IMG/VR virus record: IMGVR_UViG_3300035148_000223
Coordinates: 1 to 57,053 of that record
Source: a virus
Taxonomy: Duplodnaviria > Caudoviricetes
Length of the DNA stretch: 57,053 nt
Direction: 5' to 3' (one strand)
Shown: positions 6,378-43,666 of the stretch, in pieces
Layout: each line of letters starts with the position of its first letter
How positions within the stretch are numbered: position 1 is the first letter of the stretch
Notes under the pieces: generated by a model
The model's input: only the letters and a program-made list of their open reading frames with translations
What the model was told of the DNA's origin: nothing
Databases searched by the model: none
Translations under genes and position numbers: made by a program

Positions 6378-6703
6378 GCGGTCGGCTCCGAGACGAGCGT
6401 GTACATCCAGACGCCTTTCGAGACAAGGTCGCGCTCGATGCCGTAGCCTTGCTGCTTCAACTCGAAGATGCGCGCCCCGTAACGGTAGCAGATGCCGTTC
6501 AGCACGACGTTCGTCGCCGGTCCCTCGCGGAGCCTCGCGAGGACGCGGTCCTTGGCGGTCGCGAGTCGCGAGGCTTCGTCGGCTTGCTGCTCGGCATGGG
6601 TCTGCCAGACGGTCTGCCGCTCCGCTGGCGTGGGGAGGTCGGCGGGCCGGGTGACGGTGTAGCCGTCCTCGGCCAGACACGAGAAGAGGTCTGTCTGGTT
6701 CAC
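6374..6703 (-). CDS. Winged-helix DNA-binding protein
   Basis: RVLARL...RYGARIFELKQQGYGI; TAGGAGGACCC RBS, GTG start. Confidence 0.65.
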   Translation of the reverse strand: MNQTDLFSCLAEDGYTVTRPADLPTPAERQTVWQTHAEQQADEASRLATAKDRVLARLREGPATNVVLNGICYRYGARIFELKQQGYGIERDLVSKGVWMYTLVSEPTA

Positions 6704-7533
6704 TTGGGTCCTCCTAGCGCGCGACGCTGACTCGGGCCGGAGAGGGACCACATGCTCGCGCGCTCGCGCAAGCGGTCGTAGACGGCCATCCCGAACGCCG
6801 CCGTCATCGCCTTCGGCACCTCGGACGCCTCGGTCTCGGCCGGGATGTTGAGGACGAAGATGGTTGGGCGGTTGTTCTTCTGGCGCGCATCGAGCAGGGC
6901 GCGGAAGAACTCCTGCTGCTTGTCGGTCGTCGGCGTCTTCGTCAACTCGTCGATCACGAGGACGTCGTAGGTGGCGAGAATGTCGAGCAGTTCGTACTCG
7001 GTCTCGCCGTGGTCGTCGTCGCGGTGGCCGAAGGTCGCATTCCACCGCATCCAGATCACCTTCGCGTCGGTGTAGAGTCCGGTCTCGGTGCCTTTCTCCA
7101 GTGACCCGCGCAGCATGGCGATGGCCAGCCCGGACTTGCCGGTGCCGTTCGGGCCAAACAGCACGACGTCTGGCCGTTTGTCGCGCGGCTTGGCGAGCCA
7201 TTCACCCCCGCGCGCGGCCAGCGTCGGCTTGAGCAGGTCGCTCTTGTACGACGAGAGGGACCATGTGAGGCAGGCTTCCGGCACGCCCGCCTTGCGGAGC
7301 CGCTCGAAGAACACGCCATCGACAGACGGGGGGCCGCTGGGCCAGAGTTCGCGAAGCTGGCTGGCCGAGAGAACCTCGTCGGCCCGCTTGCTGGCGCGTT
7401 TGCGTGCGCCCGCCGGACAGAGGCAGCGCACGACGAGGAAGGTGCCGTTGAAGTCCTGCACGCGCAGCCAGCCGTCTGTGCAGTGCGGACATTCGCGGCC
7501 GACGTGATCGGCCGAGATGGCGGTGTAGCTCAT
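6700..7533 (-). CDS. DnaC/IstB-like helicase loader ATPase
   Basis: N-terminal CPHC...CLC zinc motif; Walker A GPNGTGKS; Walker B VLVIDEL; YDRLRE. Confidence 0.88.
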   Translation of the reverse strand: MSYTAISADHVGRECPHCTDGWLRVQDFNGTFLVVRCLCPAGARKRASKRADEVLSASQLRELWPSGPPSVDGVFFERLRKAGVPEACLTWSLSSYKSDLLKPTLAARGGEWLAKPRDKRPDVVLFGPNGTGKSGLAIAMLRGSLEKGTETGLYTDAKVIWMRWNATFGHRDDDHGETEYELLDILATYDVLVIDELTKTPTTDKQQEFFRALLDARQKNNRPTIFVLNIPAETEASEVPKAMTAAFGMAVYDRLRERASMWSLSGPSQRRALGGPK

Positions 7534-8282
7534 TCGTCCTCCATGAGAATCTGGGGCGGGGGCGCGCTCAGAACGTGCTTCCGATTGCGCGCCTCGGTCT
7601 GCCGCCGCAGGTCGTCGGCGTTCTGGGGCTTCTGCTGGGCGGCGAGTTTGTTCCAGCATGACGCGAGGATGGCCATGTCCTTCCCGCTCTGCTGGATGAA
7701 GCGGTCGTGGCTGTCGAAGAGCCGGGGGAGCATCGCGACGACGGCGTCGTACCCGTGCTGCTGAATCAGCCGCTTGGCGTGGGCGGCGTCCTTGCCGCTG
7801 TAGTGGGGCTTGGTTCCCACTTCTGCCCGGAAGAGCTTTTCGTGTTCCGAGAGCAGGGCCTTGATGGTGTGGGCGTTCCCCGTACGTACTGATGGATCTT
7901 GTGACGGATCTACTGACGGATCGGGTGACACCCGTGTCACCCCAGAGGTGACAGGTACGTCACCCCTAGTGGTCTCCGACGTCACCCCCAGATGTTGTGG
8001 GGTGTCAGATTGGCACCCCAAGAGATGAAGCCGCCAGACGGTCGGGAACCGGCTCGTCGCGGGCTTGTCCACCGCGATATAGCCTGCCGTTTCAAGGTCG
8101 CGCAGGCATCGTTGTACTGACCGCACGCTGATGTCGCAATCGGTCGCGATGGTCTTGACCGACGGATAGGAGCTTCGCCCTTGGTCGTTCGCGCAATCGG
8201 CCAGCTTGAGGAGAACGAGTCGGTGGGACGCCGAGGCGAGGCCCCGGACGTCCCACACGGCGGTCATGTAGCGGATGCTCAC
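7530..8282 (-). CDS. Replication initiator protein (N-terminal winged HTH)
   Basis: LVLLKLADCAND...SYPSVKTIATDCDISVRSVQRCLRDLETAGYI; immediately upstream of the DnaC-like gene. Confidence 0.82.
   Translation of the reverse strand: MSIRYMTAVWDVRGLASASHRLVLLKLADCANDQGRSSYPSVKTIATDCDISVRSVQRCLRDLETAGYIAVDKPATSRFPTVWRLHLLGCQSDTPQHLGVTSETTRGDVPVTSGVTRVSPDPSVDPSQDPSVRTGNAHTIKALLSEHEKLFRAEVGTKPHYSGKDAAHAKRLIQQHGYDAVVAMLPRLFDSHDRFIQQSGKDMAILASCWNKLAAQQKPQNADDLRRQTEARNRKHVLSAPPPQILMEDE
7925..8020. repeat. Iteron-like GTCACCCC/GGTGACA repeats inside the initiator gene (candidate origin)
   Basis: GGTGACACCCGTGTCACCC, GGTGACA, CGTCACCCC (twice), GGGGTGTCA and GGCACCCC cluster in the initiator linker, as in lambdoid origins. 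Confidence 0.5.
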
Positions 8283-9169: not shown

Positions 9170-9773
9170 TGTGGGTCCTCCAGTACGATTCGAGCCGAGA
9201 AAGAAACACAGTATAGTCTTCCGGGTCTTCGTATTCACGCACGATGAGTTGGCCGTCGCGCAGATAGACCCCTAGCCGCCTGCGGGGCAGCGAGCCACGG
9301 TAGGGCGCGAGGAGGTCGTAGGCGGCGAGTTGCACGCCGTGATGCTTCGCGGGCGCGCACGTCTTGATGTCCAGCACGACTTCCCCCGCGTAGCGCGAGG
9401 TCGTGAGGATGCCGATGCGGTCCACGATGCCCGCGACACGTAGGTCGTCGCGGTAGAGGGGCGTCTCGATATGCGTGAAGTGCGGGCGGTTGACGGCCTT
9501 CCAGACCGCCCACTGGCGCAGGTAGCGTTGGTCCTCGGCGCTGGCCGAGGCGATGATGCGCCGCTGGTTCTGCTCGCTGGCAAGGTCCATCTTCACGGTC
9601 AGCTTGTGGATGCGCGTGCCGCGCTCGGCGGGACGCCCGTCCGACAGGAACTCCAGTTGGTCCTTGACCGTCTTCGGCACCGAAAGCATGGTGACGTGTG
9701 GGACGCGCACGCCCTCGAAGGTGAAGGCGTGCGCGGTCGCGTCAAAGCACAGGGGAGAGGGTCCGCGTGTCAT
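9162..9773 (-). CDS. PD-(D/E)XK exonuclease (RecB/Cas4-like fold)
   Basis: ERGTRIH, IETPLY, AGIVDRI, VLDIKT and QLAAY motifs. Confidence 0.85.
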   Translation of the reverse strand: MTRGPSPLCFDATAHAFTFEGVRVPHVTMLSVPKTVKDQLEFLSDGRPAERGTRIHKLTVKMDLASEQNQRRIIASASAEDQRYLRQWAVWKAVNRPHFTHIETPLYRDDLRVAGIVDRIGILTTSRYAGEVVLDIKTCAPAKHHGVQLAAYDLLAPYRGSLPRRRLGVYLRDGQLIVREYEDPEDYTVFLSRLESYWRTHNG

Positions 9774-10696
9774 TCGCCGGGCCGTTTCTTCGAGGCGAGC
9801 CACCCCAGCACGTCCTCGAAGTAGATGCTGGGCAGGTCGGCCGAGTGATCGACGTTGTACTTGAGCTTGATGTGTTTCTTCACGTCGTCGGGGTCACGGC
9901 CCGCCTCTTGGAGCTTGACCCACAGGAAATTGCGCTGCTTCTGGCTGATGGGATGCGGAGCCGAGGCGACCGGCTTGTCGCTCTTCCACTTGTCGGCGTT
10001 CGGGCTGTGCGGGGCCACCCGAATCTCCTGCCACTTCGGCGTCACGTCCACGCGCCGCCAGACGGCTTGCTCTTCGTTCTTGACGACGGCGATGACTCGG
10101 ATGCAGTTCGCCTTGATGAAGCGGTCCACGAACCGGCGGTCCCAGCACTCCGAGGCGATGCCGAGGTCCTTGCAGCACCGCATCAGCGCGTTGGACTTGA
10201 TCACTTCGAGCGCGGTCGCCTTCGAGACGCGCTTGTTGCTCGGGTTGTATTCGGCCTCGCCCCACGCGACGGCGCGCACGAGGTCATGCACGAGCAGCGC
10301 CCACTGCTGCATCAGCGTGGTGCCGTTGTCGTCCATGATGGGCAGGTTCAGGTTCTTCAGCGACCAGCCGCCGCTGCCGAAGACCGCTGTCAGTCTGCGG
10401 CGATACTCGACCTGCGGGAAGTAGATTTCCCCCGTGGGCAGGATGTCGATCAGGTCCGGGTCCACCGGGGCCGTGAGCGCCTTGTGCTGCTTCTCGGTGA
10501 ACGGTTCCTTGCCCCACGGGTAGCCGATGTAGGGCGCGGACGTGAGGGCAATCGGCTCGCTCGGGGTGGGCGGCGGCGGCGCACTGATGACCGTGATGAC
10601 GCCGTGGTCGCCGTGTGGCGCGCCGACGAGCGCGCGGGGTTCTACGCGCCGGGCGAGAGCGGTGGTGCGCGCAGGGGTCTTTTTCTTCGTCTTCAT
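9770..10696 (-). CDS. Mgm101/Rad52-family single-strand annealing protein
   Basis: IDILPTGEIYFPQVEYRRRLTAVFGSGGW...SNALMRCCKDLGIASECWD matches the Mgm101 core. Confidence 0.85.
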   Translation of the reverse strand: MKTKKKTPARTTALARRVEPRALVGAPHGDHGVITVISAPPPPTPSEPIALTSAPYIGYPWGKEPFTEKQHKALTAPVDPDLIDILPTGEIYFPQVEYRRRLTAVFGSGGWSLKNLNLPIMDDNGTTLMQQWALLVHDLVRAVAWGEAEYNPSNKRVSKATALEVIKSNALMRCCKDLGIASECWDRRFVDRFIKANCIRVIAVVKNEEQAVWRRVDVTPKWQEIRVAPHSPNADKWKSDKPVASAPHPISQKQRNFLWVKLQEAGRDPDDVKKHIKLKYNVDHSADLPSIYFEDVLGWLASKKRPGE

Positions 10697-10832
10697 GGGT
10701 CCTCCGTTTGCGTTTCGGGAAAAGAGCGGGTAGGATGGCCGTGGGTGCGGGTCCTCCAACTCTTACCCACTTCGGGCCTGACCACTGAACCTCCTGCCGG
10801 AGACCCAGCGTCAGGCCCGTTGCTTGTACGGG

Positions 10833-29922: not shown

Positions 29923-31464
29923 ATGCTGCGCGTGAACTACGACGACATCGTCGCGGAACTGCGCGCCCGTGGGCGACGGCCCACCGTGGAGCCAGACGCG
30001 AAGTTCGCCAAGTATCGCGGCAAGCCCGTGGAGTTCGTGCAAGAGGTCTTGGGGTACTCGCTCTGGAGCAAGCAGCAAGCCGTCTTGCTCTCCACGACGA
30101 GCAACCGCCGGACGGCCGTACATTCCTGCCACGACTCCGGCAAGTCCTTCATCCTCGCCGCGACCGTCGCCTACTGGCTGTCCGTCTATCCCCCCGGCGA
30201 AGCGTTCGTCGTGACGACAGCCCCGACGTTCAATCAGGTGCGCGCGATTCTCTGGCGCGAAATCAACTCCATGCACGCCGCCGGGCATCTGCCCGGCACC
30301 TGCTCACAGGTGGAGTGGAGCATCGACGGCAAGCTCGTCGCGATGGGCCGCAAGCCGGACGACTACTCCCCCGGCGCGTTTCAGGGCATCCACGCCTTGC
30401 GCGTGCTGGTCGTCATCGACGAGGCCTGCGCGGTGGCCGCGTCCATCTGGGACGCCGCCGAAACGCTCATCACCAACGACGAGTCGGCCATTGTCGCCAT
30501 CGGCAACCCGGACGATCCCGACTCCCGCTTCCGCACGGTCTGTGACCCCGGCTCCGGCTGGCACGTCATCCATATCGACGGCATGGAGACGCCGAACTTC
30601 ACCGACGAACCCGTGCCGGATCTCTTGCGGAAAGTCCTCTTGTCACGCATCTGGGCCGAGGAGCGCGCGAAGGCATGGGGCGAGGACAGCCCGATCTACA
30701 TCTCGAAGGTGCGCGGGCGCTTCCCCGACCAAGCCGAGTCCGGCCTGATTCCCGTGCGCTGGATCATGGCGGCGTTCAACCGCTACCGCGACACCCCCGG
30801 CAAGCCCGGCCTGCGCGTCTTGGGCGTGGACGTGGGCGGCGGCACGGGCAACGATAAGACCGTCATCTACCTGCGCGACGGCGACACGGCGCGCCTCGTC
30901 CATGAGGACAATACCGCCGACACGATGCTGACCGCCTCGCGCATCGCCTTCCTCCTGCGCGAACACCGGGCGTCGCTCGCCGTCATCGACTCGGCCGGGC
31001 TGGGGAAGGGCGTCTACGACCGCTGCCGCCAACTCGGTGTCCCGTCCCACCCCGTCAACGTGGGAGAGGGCTGCGACGATGACACCGCTCGCGCCCAATT
31101 CGAGAACAAGCGCGCCCACTTCTACTGGAGCCTGCGCGACCGCTTCGAGAAAGGCGAGTTGCGGCTGGACCCGACCGACGACATCGTGGAAGGCCAACTG
31201 CGCGCCACGCGCTACAAGCTCACCCCGCGCGGGCGCATCGCGATTGAATCGAAAGACGACATGGCCAAACGCGGCCTGCGCTCGCCCGATCACGCCGACG
31301 CACTCATGCTATGCTTTGCTCCGTCGGTGAACGCGGCTGCGCCCTTGTCCGGGGCGTTCGGGGGGCTATCGTTGGGGTCACGCGTGAGCGCGTGGGTGGA
31401 CCCGGCCAATGAGGACATCGACCCGGATGACCTCGACGCCGAGTCCTCCCGAGACCCATTCTAG
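29923..31464 (+). CDS. terL: Terminase large subunit
   Basis: Walker A SCHDSGKS; VVIDEA; IGNP; nuclease motifs LGVDVG, IDSAGLG and SPDHADALML. Confidence 0.95.
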   Translation: MLRVNYDDIVAELRARGRRPTVEPDAKFAKYRGKPVEFVQEVLGYSLWSKQQAVLLSTTSNRRTAVHSCHDSGKSFILAATVAYWLSVYPPGEAFVVTTAPTFNQVRAILWREINSMHAAGHLPGTCSQVEWSIDGKLVAMGRKPDDYSPGAFQGIHALRVLVVIDEACAVAASIWDAAETLITNDESAIVAIGNPDDPDSRFRTVCDPGSGWHVIHIDGMETPNFTDEPVPDLLRKVLLSRIWAEERAKAWGEDSPIYISKVRGRFPDQAESGLIPVRWIMAAFNRYRDTPGKPGLRVLGVDVGGGTGNDKTVIYLRDGDTARLVHEDNTADTMLTASRIAFLLREHRASLAVIDSAGLGKGVYDRCRQLGVPSHPVNVGEGCDDDTARAQFENKRAHFYWSLRDRFEKGELRLDPTDDIVEGQLRATRYKLTPRGRIAIESKDDMAKRGLRSPDHADALMLCFAPSVNAAAPLSGAFGGLSLGSRVSAWVDPANEDIDPDDLDAESSRDPF

Positions 31465-31487: not shown

Positions 31488-32882
31488 GTGGCCGAACCGA
31501 TCACACCCGGCAGTGGCGACATCTTTGGTGAGCTAGGCGATTCCGGACTCATTCGTTCCGCAGGGGTGGTGCAAGAGGAATGGCTGCGCGAACTGCGCGG
31601 CCTCGACGGCGTCAAGCGCCTGCGCGAGATGATCGACAACTGTCCGATCACCGGGGCCATCCTCTTCGCCATCAAACACCTCGCGCGCGGCGTCACATGG
31701 GACGTCGAACCCGCCGGGCAGACCAACGAGGAACTGGCGCAAGCCGAGTTCATCAAGGAATGCCTCTTCACCGACCAGTCCTCAACGTGGCAGGACACCC
31801 TCTCCGAAATCCTGACGTTCCTGCCCTACGGCTGGGCCTACCATGAGGTCGTCTACAAGCGCCGCCAAGGGCCGGGAGACGATCCGACCACGCGGAGCCG
31901 CTACACCGACGGCCGCATCGCCCTCCGCAAGATGCCGCTCCGGCCACAGGAAAGCCTCTGGCGCTGGGAGTTCGACGAGACCGGCGGCGTGCAGGCGATG
32001 ACGCAGTGGGCCGACGGGAAGATCGCGACCATCCCGATTCAGAAGTCCCTGCTCTTCCGGACAGAGGTCTTGAAGGGCAATCCCGAGGGCCGGTCCATCC
32101 TCCGCAACGCCTACATCACCTACGTTCGCCGCAAGCGCATCGAGAACCAAGAGGGCATCGGCATCGAGCGCGACCTCGCGGGCTACCCGGTCTTCACGGT
32201 CGAGAAAGACGGCCCGGACATCTGGAACCCGAACGACGAGGCGGCGCGTACGTGGCTGGCCAACATCCGCAAGCTCTACAAGAGCATCCGCCGCGACGAG
32301 CAAGAGGGCATGGTCAAGCCGTGGTGGCTGCGCTTCGAGTTGATGAGCGGGGCCTCGCGCCGCGTCTTCGACACGACCGCCATCATCGAGCGCATGGACC
32401 GCCGCATCGCGATGACCGTCCTCTGGGACTTCCTGCTCATCGGCCACGGGCAGACCGGGTCCTTCTCGCTGGTCTCCTCGCGCGCCTCGCTCGCGGCCGT
32501 CTCCCTCGAAGGCTTCCTCCAGACCATCTGCGACACGATCAACCGCTTCCTCATCCCGAACCTGCTCGACCTCAACGGCATGCGCTACGAGAAGCCGCCG
32601 ACGCTGAAGCACGGGGCCGTGGAAGCCGTGAGCCTGACGGAACTCGGCGCGTTCCTGACCACCCTGACGCAGTCCGGGTTCAAGGTCGCCACGCTGCCCG
32701 GCATGCTGCAATACCTCTTCTCGGCCGCGAAGATTCCCGTGGCCATCCCCGACGACTACGAGGAAACGCTCTCGGCCGAGCAGGAAGCGGAAACCGAGCG
32801 GATGATCAGCGAGCAACTCCGCGCCGCCCAACCGCCCGAGCAGCCGGAGGAGGCGTCCCCCGAACCCCCGGAAGCGGAGTAG
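31488..32882 (+). CDS. Portal protein (DUF935/Mu gp29-like)
   Basis: Follows terL; GNPEGRSILRNAY, GIERDLAG and GSFSL motifs. Confidence 0.9.
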   Translation: MAEPITPGSGDIFGELGDSGLIRSAGVVQEEWLRELRGLDGVKRLREMIDNCPITGAILFAIKHLARGVTWDVEPAGQTNEELAQAEFIKECLFTDQSSTWQDTLSEILTFLPYGWAYHEVVYKRRQGPGDDPTTRSRYTDGRIALRKMPLRPQESLWRWEFDETGGVQAMTQWADGKIATIPIQKSLLFRTEVLKGNPEGRSILRNAYITYVRRKRIENQEGIGIERDLAGYPVFTVEKDGPDIWNPNDEAARTWLANIRKLYKSIRRDEQEGMVKPWWLRFELMSGASRRVFDTTAIIERMDRRIAMTVLWDFLLIGHGQTGSFSLVSSRASLAAVSLEGFLQTICDTINRFLIPNLLDLNGMRYEKPPTLKHGAVEAVSLTELGAFLTTLTQSGFKVATLPGMLQYLFSAAKIPVAIPDDYEETLSAEQEAETERMISEQLRAAQPPEQPEEASPEPPEAE

Positions 32883-32885
32883 CCC

Positions 32886-35360
32886 ATGCTCCGCACGGGA
32901 CCGACCTCCACCGGCATCGAGAAATCCGGCGACGGGCCGTGGTCCGGATTCATCCCGGCCTTCCGTCGCGCCCTGACCGACCTCTGGGACGCCGTGTCGT
33001 GGCGCATCACCGACGCCCGCGCGGTCGCTATCCAGCGCGACTTCCGCCAGATCGGCAAGCTCGTCATCGAGGCGATTGCCGAGGACAGCACCGTGGGCGA
33101 CACGGCGGCATCCATCATCCAGCGGTCTTTCCAGACCACGGCGAAAGCCATCGGGCTGCGCGGGGCCACGCTCAATGAGGGCTGGGTCGCCGAGCGCGCC
33201 TCGGTCTGGGCCGACCTCCACGCGCAGAGCATGGTCAACGGCATGCGGGAAGCCGCCGGGTTCGCGCGGCAGTGGAAGCTCGCGCCCGCAGACGCCGGGG
33301 AATGGCTCCGGCAGACCTCTGGCCTGACACAGTCGCAGGTCCGGCGCATGGCCGTGGCCAAGGCCAAGGGAGCCGACCTCACCAAGTTCGGCGCGCTGCT
33401 CCGACAGGACCGCGCCCGCGTGATTGCCGAGCATCAGGCGCAATTCAGCTATCAGCAGGGCCAGCGCGCCGCCTACGCCGAGGTGGTCTCGCGCGGCGGG
33501 CGCGTGTCGCGACGGTGGGTCATCGCGTCCAGCGCATGCGACAAGCTCTGCCGACCAATGGCGGGACGGACGGTGTCGCCCGACGGCCTCTGGACCCTGC
33601 CCGACGGGCGTCAGGTCGAGACCCCCGTCGAGTCGCACCCGCACTGCCGCTGCCATGAGGTCTACACCGTGGCAGGGGTCTGGAAGCGTGAAGGTCCGGT
33701 CATACAGGACGGCCCGTCTGCGCCCGCCGCGCTCGCATGGTGGGTCCTTCAGAAGTACTCGCCCGGCCAAGCGCGCGTGCCTGCGGGCCAGCGCAAGGGC
33801 GGACAGTGGGTCAAGATCGCCGGGCCGAAAGGGAGCTTCAAGGTGCGGGCGCTGCCGGGCCTGCCGGTCAAGATCCTGTCGCATCGCATCTTCGACCACG
33901 TCAAAAAGACGCCGCAGAACGACAGCATCCAGTTGCTCAAGCAGGCGGACATGGGCGCACTCGGCGAGCGCCTCGTGCAGGGCTTCCTCACGAAGACCAA
34001 GCCGCCACTCCGCGTGGGATCGCTCAACAACAGCCGCAACAACGAAGCGGCCGACCTCGTCTACGATCACCGCATCATCGAGGTGAAGGGCGGCAACGCC
34101 GCGAACACCAAAGGCGCGCAGCAGTGGCGCGTCACACACGACCAAAAGCTCTCCGCGCGAGAAGAGGCGTACGTCGCCCGGTTCCCCAAGGCGCAGCAGC
34201 CACGCGTGAAGGCCGACCTGCGGCGGAAGAAGCAGGTTGATGCGATCCAGCGCAAGTACGAACTCGCCGACAAGCTGACGAAGCGGTATGGCGTCCAGTT
34301 CAAGACCGAGACGTGGACGCTCATCGTCAACACCAAGACCAAGCGCGCAGACCTCTTCAGCTTCGCGGGCATCTGCGAGACGATCAAGTGGAACAAGGCC
34401 AACCTGAAGAACAACTACCGAGGGAGCCTCGCCTTCAGCGGGTGGACGGCCGGGATTGATGCGCCCGTGCGCGCCGACCAAGCCCACAAGCTGAGAGGCG
34501 TCCGCAAGGCCGAGGACGAGGACGTCGAGAAGTACTCCCCGTCACAGCCGCGCGACCGACGCGGACGCTTTGCTGGTGGTATCGGGATTCCGATGACGGG
34601 CGGTGCTGGCTCGCGTCTGGATTCATCCGTTGGTGCCGGGAAAGGCACGCCCGCAAGCGCCTGCGCGGCCGTCAGTGCAAAGGCGCGTGGAGACCTGAAG
34701 AAGCAGGGCATCTCCACCGAAAACGCGAACGTCGTCGTCAAGAAGATGGAAGGCCGCACGGGTGGGTGGTACGACCGCGAGCGCGGGGAGATCGTCCTGC
34801 GCGCCGACATCGAAGCGGGCCTGAAGTCGAAGGACCCAGAGCTTCGCAAAGTGTGCGAGTCGGCCGTCGTCCACGAGACCATTCACTCCGGCACATGGGC
34901 CACGCAAGAGAAGTTCGAGATGACGACGCGCGATCCCATTCTCCAGACGGCGTCCGCGCAACTCGACGAGGCGATCACCGAACACAAGGCCCGGCGCATG
35001 GTGCATGGCGAGAAGGCCGACGTGGTGAAGATCGCGGCCGACTGGCACGCCAAGGCGAAGGCGACCAAGTCGCTCATCAGCTACGGCTATGAGGATCAGG
35101 TCGCCATCCTCGACGCCGTGGGGAAGAGCGGCGGGGCCAAGTGGCAGCAGGCCCTCTTCAAGGCCAGTCCGACCGCGCGCGTCCTGATGTTCGGCAAGGC
35201 GTTGCAGCAGGACTTCCTCCGCGATCCCGCCGTCCCGAAGTCGCTCAAGGCCGACCTGAAGGGCGACCTGAAAAACGTCAAGTACTGGGCCGACCAAGGC
35301 CTTGAGTTCGCCGACCTCTACCGGAAGAGCAAGGCCGCGTGGGCGAAGAAGGTGTTCTGA
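32886..35360 (+). CDS. MuF head morphogenesis protein fused to a PD-(D/E)XK nuclease-like domain and a HExxH metallopeptidase-like domain
   Basis: ACDKLC...HPHCRC (MuF); GALGE...ADL...IEVK; HETIH...LDEAITE; two KYSP..Q.R linkers. Confidence 0.8.
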   Translation: MLRTGPTSTGIEKSGDGPWSGFIPAFRRALTDLWDAVSWRITDARAVAIQRDFRQIGKLVIEAIAEDSTVGDTAASIIQRSFQTTAKAIGLRGATLNEGWVAERASVWADLHAQSMVNGMREAAGFARQWKLAPADAGEWLRQTSGLTQSQVRRMAVAKAKGADLTKFGALLRQDRARVIAEHQAQFSYQQGQRAAYAEVVSRGGRVSRRWVIASSACDKLCRPMAGRTVSPDGLWTLPDGRQVETPVESHPHCRCHEVYTVAGVWKREGPVIQDGPSAPAALAWWVLQKYSPGQARVPAGQRKGGQWVKIAGPKGSFKVRALPGLPVKILSHRIFDHVKKTPQNDSIQLLKQADMGALGERLVQGFLTKTKPPLRVGSLNNSRNNEAADLVYDHRIIEVKGGNAANTKGAQQWRVTHDQKLSAREEAYVARFPKAQQPRVKADLRRKKQVDAIQRKYELADKLTKRYGVQFKTETWTLIVNTKTKRADLFSFAGICETIKWNKANLKNNYRGSLAFSGWTAGIDAPVRADQAHKLRGVRKAEDEDVEKYSPSQPRDRRGRFAGGIGIPMTGGAGSRLDSSVGAGKGTPASACAAVSAKARGDLKKQGISTENANVVVKKMEGRTGGWYDRERGEIVLRADIEAGLKSKDPELRKVCESAVVHETIHSGTWATQEKFEMTTRDPILQTASAQLDEAITEHKARRMVHGEKADVVKIAADWHAKAKATKSLISYGYEDQVAILDAVGKSGGAKWQQALFKASPTARVLMFGKALQQDFLRDPAVPKSLKADLKGDLKNVKYWADQGLEFADLYRKSKAAWAKKVF

Positions 35361-35560
35361 TGTTGAAGCCGTCCGCCCTGTCTGCGCTGATGCAGCGCAT
35401 CATTCATCACGATGGCGAGGACCTCGACGCCCTGAAGCGCGACGTCTTGGCCTACCCGGACGAGCATCAGCAGAAGCCGCTGATCGACTGTGCCGCCCGG
35501 CATGGACTGGCAGAACTCTTCCTCCGCGAGGACGCCGATGGCGAAGAAGCCGACGCCTGA
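35360..35560 (+). CDS. Small acidic protein (candidate immunity)
   Basis: TGATG coupling to the MuF fusion. Confidence 0.5.
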   Translation: MLKPSALSALMQRIIHHDGEDLDALKRDVLAYPDEHQQKPLIDCAARHGLAELFLREDADGEEADA

Positions 35561-35849
35561 CCCGACCGACGACGAGATGGACGACCTCGTCGCCGAGGAC
35601 CGCGATCTGGTCCCGCCCGTCATCGGGCGCGACGCCCCCGTGGTTCCCCCGCCCCCGCGCGAGCGGTGGTTCACGCACGACGATCCCAACCTCCAAGCCG
35701 AAGCCGATGCCATTCAGCGCGAGGCCGAGGACGAGAACGAGCGCCGCGCGCAGGAGTTCGCCGCGAACCTCCTCGACTGGCTGCGCGAAATGCCGACCAA
35801 CGAACCCGAACCGCCAGCGTCGCTGCCGCCGACCCGAGGGACGGACTGA
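35538..35849 (+). CDS. Acidic Pro-rich protein (candidate immunity)
   Basis: GAGGA RBS; MAKKPTPDPTDDEMDDL. Confidence 0.55.
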   Translation: MAKKPTPDPTDDEMDDLVAEDRDLVPPVIGRDAPVVPPPPRERWFTHDDPNLQAEADAIQREAEDENERRAQEFAANLLDWLREMPTNEPEPPASLPPTRGTD

Positions 35850-36049
35850 TGATTCACGACCTGACGAAGGAAACGCGGGCCTTTGTGACCGTGCAGGAAG
35901 CCGCCGAATACCTCAACGTCGCGGAGCGCACGCTGCGCTACCAGATCCAGAAGGGCGCGCTGCCCGCGCATCGCGTCGGCACCCTCATCCGCATCCCGGT
36001 GCGCGAGTTGCGCGTCTATATCGGCATGGTGGTGCAGCCAGACGTCTAG
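35849..36049 (+). CDS. Excisionase-like HTH protein
   Basis: VTVQEAAEYLNVAERTLRYQIQKGALPAHRVGTLIRIP. Confidence 0.85.
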   Translation: MIHDLTKETRAFVTVQEAAEYLNVAERTLRYQIQKGALPAHRVGTLIRIPVRELRVYIGMVVQPDV

Positions 36050-36143: not shown

Positions 36144-36647
36144 ATGGCCGAAACCGACGTCATCCTCCTGAAAAACGAGCCACTTCGCTACACCCTCGGT
36201 GTCGTGTACGAACCGAACACCGTGGACGCACACGAGGATTGGGCCAAGGAAGAGACGATTCGACAGGCCGCGTGGGACTTCGCCCGCAAGATGCAGGGCC
36301 GTCTCCCCATCCTCAAGACCGCCGTGGAGTTCATCGAGGCCATCTGCGCCCCGCAGGCTCCGCAGGTCCGCATCGACATCACCGACCTGCTGGCGGAAGC
36401 CGAGACCGTCCGCAAGGGCCGTCTCGGCGACATGCACGGCCAGTGGGACGACTCCCTCGGCGACATCGTCGAAACCTACCTCGCCCCGTGCGACCTGCTC
36501 ATCAACGGGCAGGCCGTCAAGGCGGGGTCATGGATGCTCGGCGTGGTCTGGTCGCCCGAATACTTCGAGAAGATTCTCGCCGGGGAGCGCGTCGGCTTCT
36601 CCCTCGGCGGACTGGCCCAGCGCGCCTACGGAGGGACGAATGCCTGA
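36144..36647 (+). CDS. XkdF-like prohead serine protease
   Basis: GVVYEP..VDAH.D, DMH, IVETYLAP, GSWMLGV and GFSLGG motifs. Confidence 0.85.
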   Translation: MAETDVILLKNEPLRYTLGVVYEPNTVDAHEDWAKEETIRQAAWDFARKMQGRLPILKTAVEFIEAICAPQAPQVRIDITDLLAEAETVRKGRLGDMHGQWDDSLGDIVETYLAPCDLLINGQAVKAGSWMLGVVWSPEYFEKILAGERVGFSLGGLAQRAYGGTNA

Positions 36648-37653
36648 GTTGCGGAATCTACGCGTGCATGAAGTCTCCGGCGTGGATCGCCCAGCCAACA
36701 AACGCGTCTTTCTCGTGGTGAAGTCCGAGGATGGCAACGTCAGCGAAGTGGAGGTGGAGCGCATGGGCGAAATGCCGATGGAAGCGCCCATGCGTGGCCC
36801 CTCCGATGACTTCACCGAAAACCTCATCAAGCGCCGCCTCTACCTCGTCGCCGGAACCATCGGCGAACTCTACGGCGCGCTCATGGAGACGCTGGAAGGC
36901 GTCGCGCACACTGCCGGAGATGGCCTCGCCGAAATCGAAGCGGCCCTCCGCGACTACTCGACGGCGATAGACAACGCGGTGCCAGACCTCATGGCCCGCA
37001 TGGGCACTGCGCTGGAAGACGCGCAGAAACGCGGCGCGAAGATCAGCGCCGACAGGATGCGTCGTCTGACGACGATCCAGCGCATCCTCAACGAAGTCCT
37101 CGATGAAGGAGGCAGCAAGCCGATGGCAACCGAGAAGAGCGAAACGCCGCCCGCGCCGCAGCCGGACGTGGAAGTCCAGAAGCGGCTCGCGGACCTCGAA
37201 GCTCTCGTCAAGTCGCAGAACGAGAAGCTCGAAACCGCGAACAAGCGCGCCGAAGACGCCGAGGCCGTGGCCAAGGCGGAACGGGAAGCGCGCGAACTCG
37301 TCACGAAGGGCGAGTTCATCAAGACCACCCTCCCCGCCCTCGGGCTGGCCGACACCGACGCCGCGATCCTGCTGGCCGTCGAGAAGGCCCTCCCGGTCGA
37401 GGTGGGCAACCGTCTCATCGACATCCTGAAGGCCGCGAACGAGCAGGTCGCCAAGGGCAAGCTCTTCGAGGAATCCGGCCTGTCCGGCGGGAAAGCCGCC
37501 ATCGCCTCCGACGACCCGGTCGTCAAGTTCACGGCGGAAGTCGCGGTGCGTGTCGAGAAGGGCATGACCCGCGAAGCGGCCGTGGAAGACATCACCAAGG
37601 CCGACCCCACGCTCTACGACCGCTACCGCGCGGCCGTGTCGCTGAAGGTCTAG
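36640..37653 (+). CDS. Scaffold protein (N-terminal EVSxVDxPAN strand; probable internal start at 37123)
   Basis: LRVHEVSGVDRPAN; coiled coil; AAGGAGG before internal MATEK; C-terminal PTLYDRY. Confidence 0.8.
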   Translation: MPELRNLRVHEVSGVDRPANKRVFLVVKSEDGNVSEVEVERMGEMPMEAPMRGPSDDFTENLIKRRLYLVAGTIGELYGALMETLEGVAHTAGDGLAEIEAALRDYSTAIDNAVPDLMARMGTALEDAQKRGAKISADRMRRLTTIQRILNEVLDEGGSKPMATEKSETPPAPQPDVEVQKRLADLEALVKSQNEKLETANKRAEDAEAVAKAEREARELVTKGEFIKTTLPALGLADTDAAILLAVEKALPVEVGNRLIDILKAANEQVAKGKLFEESGLSGGKAAIASDDPVVKFTAEVAVRVEKGMTREAAVEDITKADPTLYDRYRAAVSLKV

Positions 37654-42607: not shown

Positions 42608-43666
42608 GTGAGGATCTTGTTCTGTAAGCCAGCCGCCGAGTTCAGCGTGTCCGACGTCGCCCGAGGGCTGCGCGCGGCCCTCGTCCGTCAAGGCCACGAC
42701 CTGCGCGACTACGACATGGGCAAGCGGCTGGCCTACCACTCGCGCGCGATGGGCGAGCTGTACGTCGAGCAGGTCTCGGCCGTGAGCAAGCAGGCCAGCG
42801 AGAACATCTTGATCGAGGCCATGTACCATCACGCCGACCTCGTCATCATCGTGTCCGCGCTGATTTACCACCCCGCCGCGCTCGTGCTGCTGCGAATGGC
42901 CCGTGTGCCGACCGTCGTCCTCCACACCGAATCGCCGTACTGCGACGACGATCAGGTCGAATGGGCAGCGGCCAACCCGGATGCGCTGCACTGCACGCAT
43001 GACGCCGCGAGCGCGCGGAAGCTCGGCTGGGCCTACGTCCCGCACTCCTACGATCCGAATATCCACAAGCCCTGCCGGGAAGAGATGGTGCTGGGCAGCG
43101 ACGGCACGCCGCGCATCGAGTGGGACAACGAGGCAGACCTCCAGTCCGACAAGGCCTGCGACGTCTGCTTCATCGGCACGGGCTGGCCGGAGCGCATCGC
43201 GTTCTTGGAGCAGGTCGATTGGACCGGCATCGACCTGCGGCTCTACGGTCTGTGGACGGCCCTGCGCGAGGACAGCCCCCTGCGGAAGTTCTATCGCGAA
43301 GGCTTGGTCCCGAACGAAGAGGCGGTGTCGTACTACCGTGCCGCGAAGATCAACATCAACGTGCATCGGGCCGATCCCACGGCGGAAAGCCTCAACCCGC
43401 GTGGCTTCGAGCTTCCGGCGTGCGGGGCGTTCACGCTGACCGACTATCGCAAGGAAGGCGTGGAGCTATTCGGGGACTCGATGCCGGTCTTCGAGACCCC
43501 GGCCGATCTGGAGCGATTGGTCAGGCACTATCTGGCCAACCCCGAAGAGCGGATGCGGTTGGCGCGGGCCGCATTCGACCGTGTCCGACCGTGCTTGTTC
43601 GACAACCGTGCCGTCTCGCTTATGAGCGCGGCGCAGGGCCGCTTTACGGCCACCAAAGGAGACTGA
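42608..43666 (+). CDS. CgeB-like GT-B glycosyltransferase
   Basis: TESPY, DVCFIGT...ER, YRAAKININVHR, LNPRGFELPACG and TDYR motifs. Confidence 0.85.
   Translation: MRILFCKPAAEFSVSDVARGLRAALVRQGHDLRDYDMGKRLAYHSRAMGELYVEQVSAVSKQASENILIEAMYHHADLVIIVSALIYHPAALVLLRMARVPTVVLHTESPYCDDDQVEWAAANPDALHCTHDAASARKLGWAYVPHSYDPNIHKPCREEMVLGSDGTPRIEWDNEADLQSDKACDVCFIGTGWPERIAFLEQVDWTGIDLRLYGLWTALREDSPLRKFYREGLVPNEEAVSYYRAAKININVHRADPTAESLNPRGFELPACGAFTLTDYRKEGVELFGDSMPVFETPADLERLVRHYLANPEERMRLARAAFDRVRPCLFDNRAVSLMSAAQGRFTATKGD

Follow-up and report, generated by a model that had tools for sequence, protein, structure and literature searches.

The virus record IMGVR_UViG_3300035148_000223 of IMG/VR (Caudoviricetes), whose full length of 57,053 nucleotides (nt) constitutes the window analyzed here, encodes an 824-residue MuF protein (P0001) that is best explained, with a probability of roughly 0.6, as a polyvalent protein whose two header-tagged cargo modules are packed with the phage DNA and released into the next host. 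The protein is composed of three parts, namely a MuF domain, a nuclease module and an HExxH module, and its gene is situated between the genes for the portal and an XkdF-type prohead protease, with the scaffold, cement and capsid genes further on. Besides this domain architecture, the explanation draws on the fold and catalytic motif of the first cargo module, on a header peptide that recurs throughout a family of head proteins, and on the mobility of cassettes among relatives. Polyvalent proteins as such are a known kind of phage protein; in the literature searched, the new elements are the header, the nuclease cargo family and a lineage-specific protease site that may be paired with the header. 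The open reading frame (ORF) and its parts are as follows, GC3 being the guanine and cytosine (GC) content at third codon positions.

32886..35360, + strand: ORF of the 824-residue MuF polyvalent protein (P0001), with a GC3 of 0.84-0.90 across all three parts
33153..33701, + strand: divergent MuF domain (residues ~90-272), by homology to Phage_Mu_F-bearing proteins
33747..33809, + strand: header 1, long form (residues 288-308), LQK followed by YSPGQARVPAGQRKGGQW
33810..34478, + strand: cargo module 1 (residues 309-531), predicted PD-(D/E)XK fold, from alignment A1, AlphaFold 2 (AF2) and VIA-align
33966-33968, 34053-34055 and 34080-34088, + strand: predicted catalytic residues E361, D390 and E399-x-K401, respectively
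34524..34571, + strand: header 2, short form (residues 547-562), VEK followed by YSPSQPRDRRGRF
34572..34646, + strand: Gly-rich spacer after header 2 (residues 563-587)
34647..35357, + strand: cargo module 2 (residues 588-824), without sequence relatives

The MuF domain contains a Cys/His motif, ACDKLC (residues 217-222) ... HPHCRC (residues 251-256), encoded at 33534-33653. When the whole protein was compared by phmmer with 1.84 billion representatives, which gave 541 matches at E<=1e-3, 206 of them at E<=1e-10 (the family counts below rest on the best 150 of the 541), residues 90-272 aligned with small proteins that end right after the MuF region. Two matches, P0100 (E 2.5e-14) and P0149 (E 1.2e-12), in turn reach Phage_Mu_F at 29.9 and 52.4 bits over the aligned part, and alignment A4 contains an R-A-x-x-I-A block and a C..C...HP.CRC block common to the MuF region and these relatives. 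Given this transitive homology, the shared motif and the position of the gene directly after the portal gene, from whose stop codon it begins 3 nt away, residues ~90-272 are to be regarded as a divergent but genuine MuF domain, whose docking partner is probably the portal. A word-indexed homologue search with the whole protein returned only itself, and neither P0001, nor its 539-residue relative P0002, nor the alignment of the two retrieved related loci from viral, metagenome or genome collections.

Cargo module 1 displays the motifs GALGE (residues 357-361), ADL (389-391) and IEVK (398-401). In the 39-sequence alignment A1, D390 (the Asp of P-V-D-L) and E399 and K401 (of E-V-K) are invariant, and G357 and E361 (of G-x-x-x-E) are conserved in at least 90% of the sequences. 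The AF2 model computed with an alignment reaches a predicted local distance difference test (pLDDT) score of 84.1 and a predicted template modeling (pTM) score of 0.77; in this model E361 belongs to the first long helix, D390 opens a strand, and the strand after that holds E399-x-K401. Comparison with 48,161 chains by VIA-align yielded 24 chains at Z>=5, headed by Hjc (1gef; Z 8.5, root-mean-square deviation 2.5, 101 residues aligned), a second Hjc structure (2wcw; Z 8.3), NhoI (8q5n; Z 8.2), I-Ssp6803I (2ost; Z 8.1) and an Hjc-type resolving enzyme (1ob8; Z 7.9). The top rows are PD-(D/E)XK enzymes almost throughout, while PvuII, VRR-NUC, tRNA-splicing endonucleases and more restriction enzymes occupy the lower rows, down to Z 5. 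Taken together, the fold and the conserved motif lead to the assignment of module 1 as a PD-(D/E)XK nuclease with an intact active-site motif, for which metal-dependent activity is predicted. At the sequence level, a profile of the nuclease family searched against PDB sequences gave one chance row (E 0.61), the nuclease region contains a Pfam family in none of the 38 proteins scanned (21 + 17), and PHROGs and NCBIfam provide no name for it.

The core fold of module 1 resembles that of Hjc resolvases and of small type II and homing endonucleases (1gef, 2wcw, 8q5n, 2ost), in which the residues of the E...D...E-x-K motif are likewise distributed over helix 1 and strands 2 and 3. Nevertheless, identity to these enzymes amounts to 11-18%, and module 1 adds a long helical insertion (model residues 140-184) as well as extra N- and C-terminal strands. 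Unlike them, it is encoded as capsid cargo.

The nuclease belongs to a family that is rarely found outside a terminal position. A region homologous to residues 291-517 is present in 146 of the 150 best phmmer matches, and the nuclease stands at the C-terminus (a tail of at most 10 residues) in 129 of these 146 proteins; the tail measures 11-60 residues in seven and more than 60 in ten, P0001 being among the latter. In the 40 viral loci the tail never exceeds 46 residues, and in 36 of them it is no longer than 9. Carriers of the nuclease comprise portals of four Pfam families, MuF proteins, Peptidase_S78 and DUF2213, and the nuclease may be strung together with Acb1, with His_Phos_1 and 2H, with ART-PolyVal, with InPase, or with a PI3/PI4 kinase; seven of the 17 locus ORFs scanned contain no Pfam family anywhere. 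Partners of this sort are also those of the polyvalent proteins of Iyer et al. 2017. The nuclease domain is frequent in metagenomic phages, with 206 representatives at E<=1e-10 from the whole-protein query, nearly all of the listed matches aligning through this domain. Judged from these matches, it constitutes a widespread capsid-cargo family without a name in the libraries searched.

The header is a short peptide with the consensus [YFW]-x-x-x-[QH]-[PA]-R, 2-10 further residues, and G-x-[FW], which stands between unrelated domains in the matches. It was detected in 62 of the 150 best phmmer matches, with 84 copies in all, and the 149 proteins besides P0001 contribute 31 copies of the short form and 51 of the long form. 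The 12 residues that follow it are rich in Gly (0.28, as against 0.09 overall), and in five of the ten proteins with an internal nuclease a header lies 16-38 residues downstream of it. A six-frame search of the 57-kb window finds Y-[SNTD]-P-x-Q-x-R at residues 291 and 550 of P0001 only; the local form is K-Y-S-P-x-Q-x-R, and the long and short forms occur in one protein, each directly after a hydrophobic-x-Lys (h-x-K) tripeptide. A recent internal duplication was considered as the origin of the two linkers and rejected, as no more than 27 nt can be matched between their DNA, at 74% identity. The repeat is therefore maintained at the peptide level. The two linkers are local copies of a widespread header that precedes unrelated cargo on portal, MuF and protease proteins; as a correction to a preliminary description of the locus, the linker is not confined to this phage. 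Other elements of that description have been borne out, including the MuF core, the PD-(D/E)XK-like middle domain, and the tandem arrangement of two cargo modules behind repeated linkers, which lie at or near the positions first given for them. No description of the header was found in the literature searched, including the available text of PMC5576092 and the main text of PMC5512222, where, its supplement aside, the header seems not to be described.

Comparison with relatives indicates how the modules are distributed. P0002, the closest relative, is 50% identical to P0001 (phmmer, E 5.8e-152) and aligns to residues 5-531; it ends ~10 residues past the nuclease, before the position of header 2. 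The head genes of loci L022 and L021 are related to those of the window (portal E 1.9e-97; capsid E 1.6e-67) and are arranged in the order portal, a 657-residue MuF protein with a terminal HELGH domain, a stand-alone 241-residue nuclease, a fusion of a 2H domain with the XkdF protease, a 359-residue protein, and scaffold. Those of L013, L012 and L014 (portal E 6.6e-79; capsid E about 1e-50) follow the order terminase, a portal-nuclease fusion (662 residues), a bare MuF protein (343 residues), a 2H-XkdF protease, scaffold, and capsid. The same nuclease is therefore found on three carriers in one lineage, that is, on MuF, on the portal, or alone, and an HExxH domain recurs on MuF in both the window and L022, the two not being detectably related. 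These arrangements argue that modules move between carriers as cassettes, in agreement with the cassette swapping at the linkers that had been anticipated for related phages.

Two features of these relatives concern the cargo carriers and the header. In L013 (7693-8646) and L022 (4938-5984), the N-terminus of the XkdF protease is occupied by a 2H phosphoesterase domain (2_5_RNA_ligase2; E 1e-8 and 5.5e-7, respectively), so that the protease acts as a cargo carrier there; the 167-residue protease of the window is devoid of this domain. In addition, the 359-residue protein of L022 has a basic tail and, in its interior, a header (LEK, then FNPWHDTRGRF).

Cargo module 2 contains HETIH at residues 663-667 (34872-34886), and a Glu-bearing helix, DEAITEH, at residues 694-700 (34965-34985), 27-33 residues downstream. 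An HExxH motif arose by chance in 77 of 20,000 shuffles of the module. In the ESM Atlas, the first named match scores 0.95 with 189 shared features, 18% of its cluster carry Peptidase_M78, and nine of the ten best named matches fall into the family or clan of the first. The weak AF2 model puts HETIH at the end of a helix, surrounded by a beta-hairpin-helix-helix layout. No relatives of the module were found in word-indexed searches with two length windows or among the best 150 of the 541 phmmer matches, and curated peptidase profiles gave no match to it (Pfam at E<=10, three cuts; NCBIfam, none relevant). A zincin-like fold is reasonably likely on these grounds, and the module is probably a small zincin-type peptidase. 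The zincin-like third domain proposed earlier is thus tentative, backed by the HExxH motif and the ESM Atlas leads, with no profile match and an unusable AF2 model.

A second HExxH family (HELGH/HEMGH) is recognizable from the similarity of L022:2095-4068 to P0013 (BLASTP E 1e-18) and has no Pfam match. Its members occupy the C-terminus of the MuF protein in L022 and a position behind the nuclease in P0013.

The prohead protease of the window is a candidate for releasing the cargo. Prohead proteases classically have the scaffold as their bulk substrate, and the T4 site has the form hydrophobic-x-Glu, which makes the analogy a fair one; a literature search on the cleavage specificity of XkdF-type proteases found nothing. 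In the scaffold of the window, [VIL]xK occurs 12 times as against 5.2 +/- 2.0 expected, a count reached in none of 1000 shuffles (z 3.6, rank 1 of 56 patterns), which places the recurrence of hydrophobic-x-K in the scaffold, as originally noticed, above chance. Similar values were obtained for the scaffolds of L022 (12 against 4.5 expected; z 4.1, rank 1 of 40) and L013 (14 against 7.0 expected; z 3.1, rank 3 of 68). The 824-residue protein itself has 20 occurrences against 12.2 expected (10 of 1000 shuffles; z 2.6, joint top), and the enrichment is absent from the capsid and terminase proteins and from the portals of L013 and L022. Within this lineage, h-x-K directly precedes the header in LQK/Y and VEK/Y of P0001, in MQK/Y at the portal-nuclease joint of L013 and in LEK/F of the 359-residue protein of L022, the slash marking the start of the header; the stand-alone nuclease of L022 has IFK three residues ahead of a header without the aromatic residue. 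Further loci with an XkdF-like protease read IGK/A (L031) and TEK/R (L017). A coiled-coil effect was considered as the source of the [VIL]xK enrichment and judged unlikely, as the enriched spacing is not one of those that heptads would give (0, 2 or 3 residues ahead of the Lys). Cleavage by the XkdF prohead protease after the Lys of h-x-K before each header is a tentative proposal that, on these sequence patterns, falls somewhat short of even odds.

The scaffolds of the window (36640-36735) and of L013 (8681-8780) and the 359-residue protein of L022 (5994-6100) share a similar start, in which a hydrophobic stretch with a terminal Lys comes after E-V/I-S-x-V-D-x-P-A. This start may be a docking or protease-recognition element.

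On the explanation favored here, the MuF domain would bring the protein into the procapsid beside the portal, with the two cargo modules hanging behind it, each opened by a header and, in module 2, provided with a Gly-rich spacer. A cut by the XkdF protease after h-x-K would detach the two enzymes, each capped by a header, from their MuF anchor. Analogy with MuF and polyvalent proteins suggests that the cargo would most likely enter the head together with the DNA and be set free in the next host, there to let the nuclease act on host or rival DNA, the targets of both enzymes being presumed.

A number of results weigh against this explanation or its individual parts. The record is a linear, uncultured contig with an estimated completeness of 70%, and the 824-residue protein gives nothing above threshold in Pfam, PHROGs, NCBIfam, PADLOC or PDB sequences. 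For the MuF domain, PF04233 (Phage_Mu_F, the family of head proteins of the SPP1 gp7/Mu gp30 type) finds a single site over the window, at 33378-33656 (profile positions 24-110, E 0.011), whose 12.2 bits lie below the cut-off of 29.6, and hmmscan reports no match. For the nuclease, Z scores of about 8 belong to the middling range according to the note of VIA-align itself, Foldseek with the nuclease model retrieves nothing from PDB or BFVD at E<=1e-3, and tblastn (E<=1e-3) with the 824-residue protein, its middle domain and the family member P0071 finds a match in none of 50,697 GenBank phage records. For the HExxH module, the AF2 single-sequence model is unusable at a pLDDT of 43; the structure rows of the ESM Atlas (Zn_peptidase, M56, M76 and SprT-like, with template modeling (TM) scores of 0.35-0.57) are all "under the bar"; the MPTase-PolyVal profile (PF18818) matches nowhere in the window, even at E<=10; and comparison with the HExxH domain of L022 and P0013 shows no relation by BLASTP and an hhalign probability of 0.14. 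As regards cleavage, h-x-K stands directly before the header in three of the 79 copies in other proteins, and the residue at position -1 of those copies is Lys or Arg in 11 and most commonly Ala (25). The register is shifted by one in P0002 (ITKK/F), L041 has an XkdF-like protease and no Lys before its header, the [VIL]xK pattern was picked after the sequence had been viewed, and the three scaffolds are homologous and thus not independent of each other. The earlier proposal of protease release after Lys is consistent with the enrichment in related scaffolds and with the h-x-K that precedes the header specifically in this lineage, and is unproven.

Three small genes lie between the MuF protein and the prohead protease.

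35360..35560, + strand: ORF A, 66 residues, acidic (15 Asp + Glu against 7 Lys + Arg); its ATG overlaps the stop codon of the 824-residue gene (TGATG)
35538..35849, + strand: ORF B, 103 residues, very acidic (26 Asp + Glu against 11 Lys + Arg) and Pro-rich; GAGGA 6 nt upstream
35849..36049, + strand: excisionase-type helix-turn-helix (HTH) gene, 66 residues; HTH_17 E 8.5e-12, TIGR01764 E 3.6e-13, PADLOC mad1 E 1.1e-8

ORF B overlaps ORF A by 23 nt, the HTH gene is coupled to ORF B by a TGATG overlap, and all three have a GC3 of 0.81-0.88 with a low GC content at second codon positions (GC2), a pattern of the coding type. The two small, acidic, coupled ORFs reported initially are therefore present, and neither has a family in Pfam, PHROGs, NCBIfam or PADLOC. 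A resemblance of ORF A to an ankyrin-type repeat, seen by eye, supports no claim, as Pfam gives nothing at E<=10. The HTH gene, which the preliminary description did not mention, is wedged between the MuF and prohead protease genes, an odd place for a DNA-binding regulator. It may be conjectured that ORF A, ORF B, the HTH gene and the third module of the MuF protein arrived together.

The small ORFs bear on a rival explanation in which P0001 would be a MuF polymorphic toxin. The nuclease, the HExxH domain or both would then be antibacterial, and ORF A and ORF B would be the cognate immunity proteins that shield the producing cell or the lysogen. A MuF toxin family of temperate phages has been described (Jamet et al. 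2017, PMC5576092, in its available text). The layout of the window is compatible with this explanation, since an N-terminal MuF domain and variable enzymatic C-terminal domains are followed by two small, acidic, coupled ORFs without a family, and two adjacent immunity proteins per MuF toxin have precedent in Apk2 with Aph1 and Tis1 and in Bxa with BAH and Bsi (PMC11699363, available part). Such an arrangement is nonetheless improbable here. ORF A and ORF B have homologues in none of the 40 nuclease-bearing viral loci, to which no family of small downstream ORFs is common; L013 and L022 contain the nuclease, and L022 an HExxH domain as well, yet have no small ORFs between the MuF and protease genes in their head modules, and the HTH gene is also absent there. 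Integrase and repressor families are missing from the 49 other ORFs scanned (E<=1e-4; record ~70% complete), and in its behavior the nuclease family resembles further header-tagged cargo, Acb1, 2H and ART among it. The immunity role first suggested for ORF A and ORF B therefore has no support.

Two further explanations retain the cargo modules and assign them a different processing or a different site of action. If no prohead protease cut took place, the HExxH domain could process the protein itself, or the protein could be ejected whole, with the header serving only as a cassette joint. Consistent with this, metallopeptidase domains have been proposed to release the units of polyvalent proteins, some of which are transferred at full length, in the main text of Iyer et al. 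2017 (PMC5512222); HExxH domains also occur on MuF in L022 and behind the nuclease in P0013; and conservation of the header, but not of h-x-K, extends across phages whose protease families differ. The probability of this course of events is nevertheless rather low, given that most header-bearing matches show no peptidase domain, that the HExxH domain of the window matches neither MPTase-PolyVal nor the L022/P0013 family, and that the scaffold enrichment in [VIL]xK and the pre-header Lys in the lineage fit a site of the head protease. Alternatively, the nuclease could work in the producing cell as an Hjc-like resolvase at the packaging vertex, with the zincin acting in head maturation. Holliday-junction resolvases are indeed its best structural matches, it is fused to portals of four families, and T4 endonuclease VII has been reported to associate with the portal protein. 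This possibility is highly improbable, however, as the nuclease bears the same tag as the host-directed enzymes Acb1, ART and 2H and follows them in one polypeptide, and also occurs fused to prohead proteases, on MuF proteins and as a gene of its own; moreover, the portal C-terminus would face the capsid interior, away from incoming branched DNA. Delivery of the two cargo modules into the next host is accordingly preferred over all of these.

The genomic neighborhood of P0001 is a head and tail module on the + strand that extends from 29.9 kb onwards, in a window with a GC content of ~66%.

29923..31464, + strand: large terminase
31488..32882, + strand: portal gene, Pfam Portal_Mu E 2.5e-24
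36144..36647, + strand: prohead protease of the XkdF type, 167 residues, the proposed processing enzyme; Peptidase_S78_2 E 1.4e-17, phrog_3017 head maturation protease E 2.4e-26
36640..37653, + strand: scaffold, 337 residues, enriched in [VIL]-x-K

After the scaffold follow, in order, a cement protein, the major capsid protein, a tail terminator and a 1101-residue ORF of tape-measure size. Identity of the capsid protein to its counterparts in Arthrobacter, Roseobacter and Microbacterium phages stays below 40%. A 901-residue ORF at 31782..34487 (- strand), antisense to the portal and MuF genes, was rejected as a gene and is regarded as a shadow frame typical of high-GC coding DNA, the + frame having a GC3 of 0.87-0.90. 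Elsewhere in the record, a replication and recombination arm encodes an Mgm101/Rad52-type annealing protein (9770-10759, - strand; E 1.4e-38) and an IstB/DnaC-like ATPase (6700-7659, - strand), and a glycosyltransferase-like gene (42608-43666) lies among the tail genes.

T4 Alt and the other internal proteins of T4 are capsid-internal and cut by gp21. The ejection proteins of SPN3US and phiKZ-like phages are likewise capsid-internal and processed by the prohead protease, according to the available parts of PMC10052503 and PMC7411985. P0001, as proposed here, would share with these processed internal proteins the packing into the head, the ejection, and a short hydrophobic-x-charged site that is frequent in scaffolds. 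It differs from them in that the protease is of the XkdF type (Peptidase_S78_2) and the candidate site ends in Lys, and in that targeting would be achieved by fusion to MuF and not by a removable N-terminal signal, with the header staying on the module.

Phage-type polyvalent proteins (Iyer, Burroughs, Anand, de Souza and Aravind 2017, PMC5512222) likewise combine several unrelated enzymatic domains among the head genes, and, as far as the main text of that study describes them, resemble P0001 in the MuF carrier, a metallopeptidase-like domain and the presumed delivery at infection. At least two unrelated effector-type domains in one polypeptide, encoded among virion or late genes, define this class, and the window contains MuF, PD-(D/E)XK and HExxH domains between the portal and the protease. 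MPTase-PolyVal, a frequent, non-obligatory hub domain of polyvalent proteins, is not found here, the HExxH module giving no match to it, and module 1 matches none of the Pfam families, the LPD and PolyVal models among them. With MuF polymorphic toxins, as presented in the available text of Jamet et al. 2017 (PMC5576092) and of PMC11699363, P0001 has in common the N-terminal MuF domain, a variable C-terminal enzyme and small downstream ORFs. In contrast to those toxins, it carries two cargo modules instead of one, the sequence of this ~70% complete record gives no sign of lysogeny, and the candidate immunity ORFs are confined to this phage and absent from its nuclease-bearing relatives.

Phages disarm their hosts with proteins delivered alongside the DNA, and beyond a few model phages little is known about which proteins travel in this way and how they are loaded and released. 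The present locus adds an unnamed, widespread nuclease cargo family to this picture, together with one cassette found on three carriers in a single lineage. A more general idea, speculative and on balance unlikely, holds that the header marks every head cargo module, is preceded in each lineage by the site of that lineage's own prohead protease (in the present phage, hydrophobic-x-Lys for an XkdF-type enzyme), and serves as a retention or ejection label. If the header proved to be a loading or release label, it would be usable for loading chosen proteins into phage heads. A rule by which a lineage-specific protease site is followed by a universal header could allow capsid cargo to be read from sequence in uncultured phages. 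If this idea is true, the cut-site residue should co-vary with the protease family while the header stays constant, and capsid maturation would convert a polyprotein anchored by MuF or the portal into separate enzymes, all starting with one and the same header.

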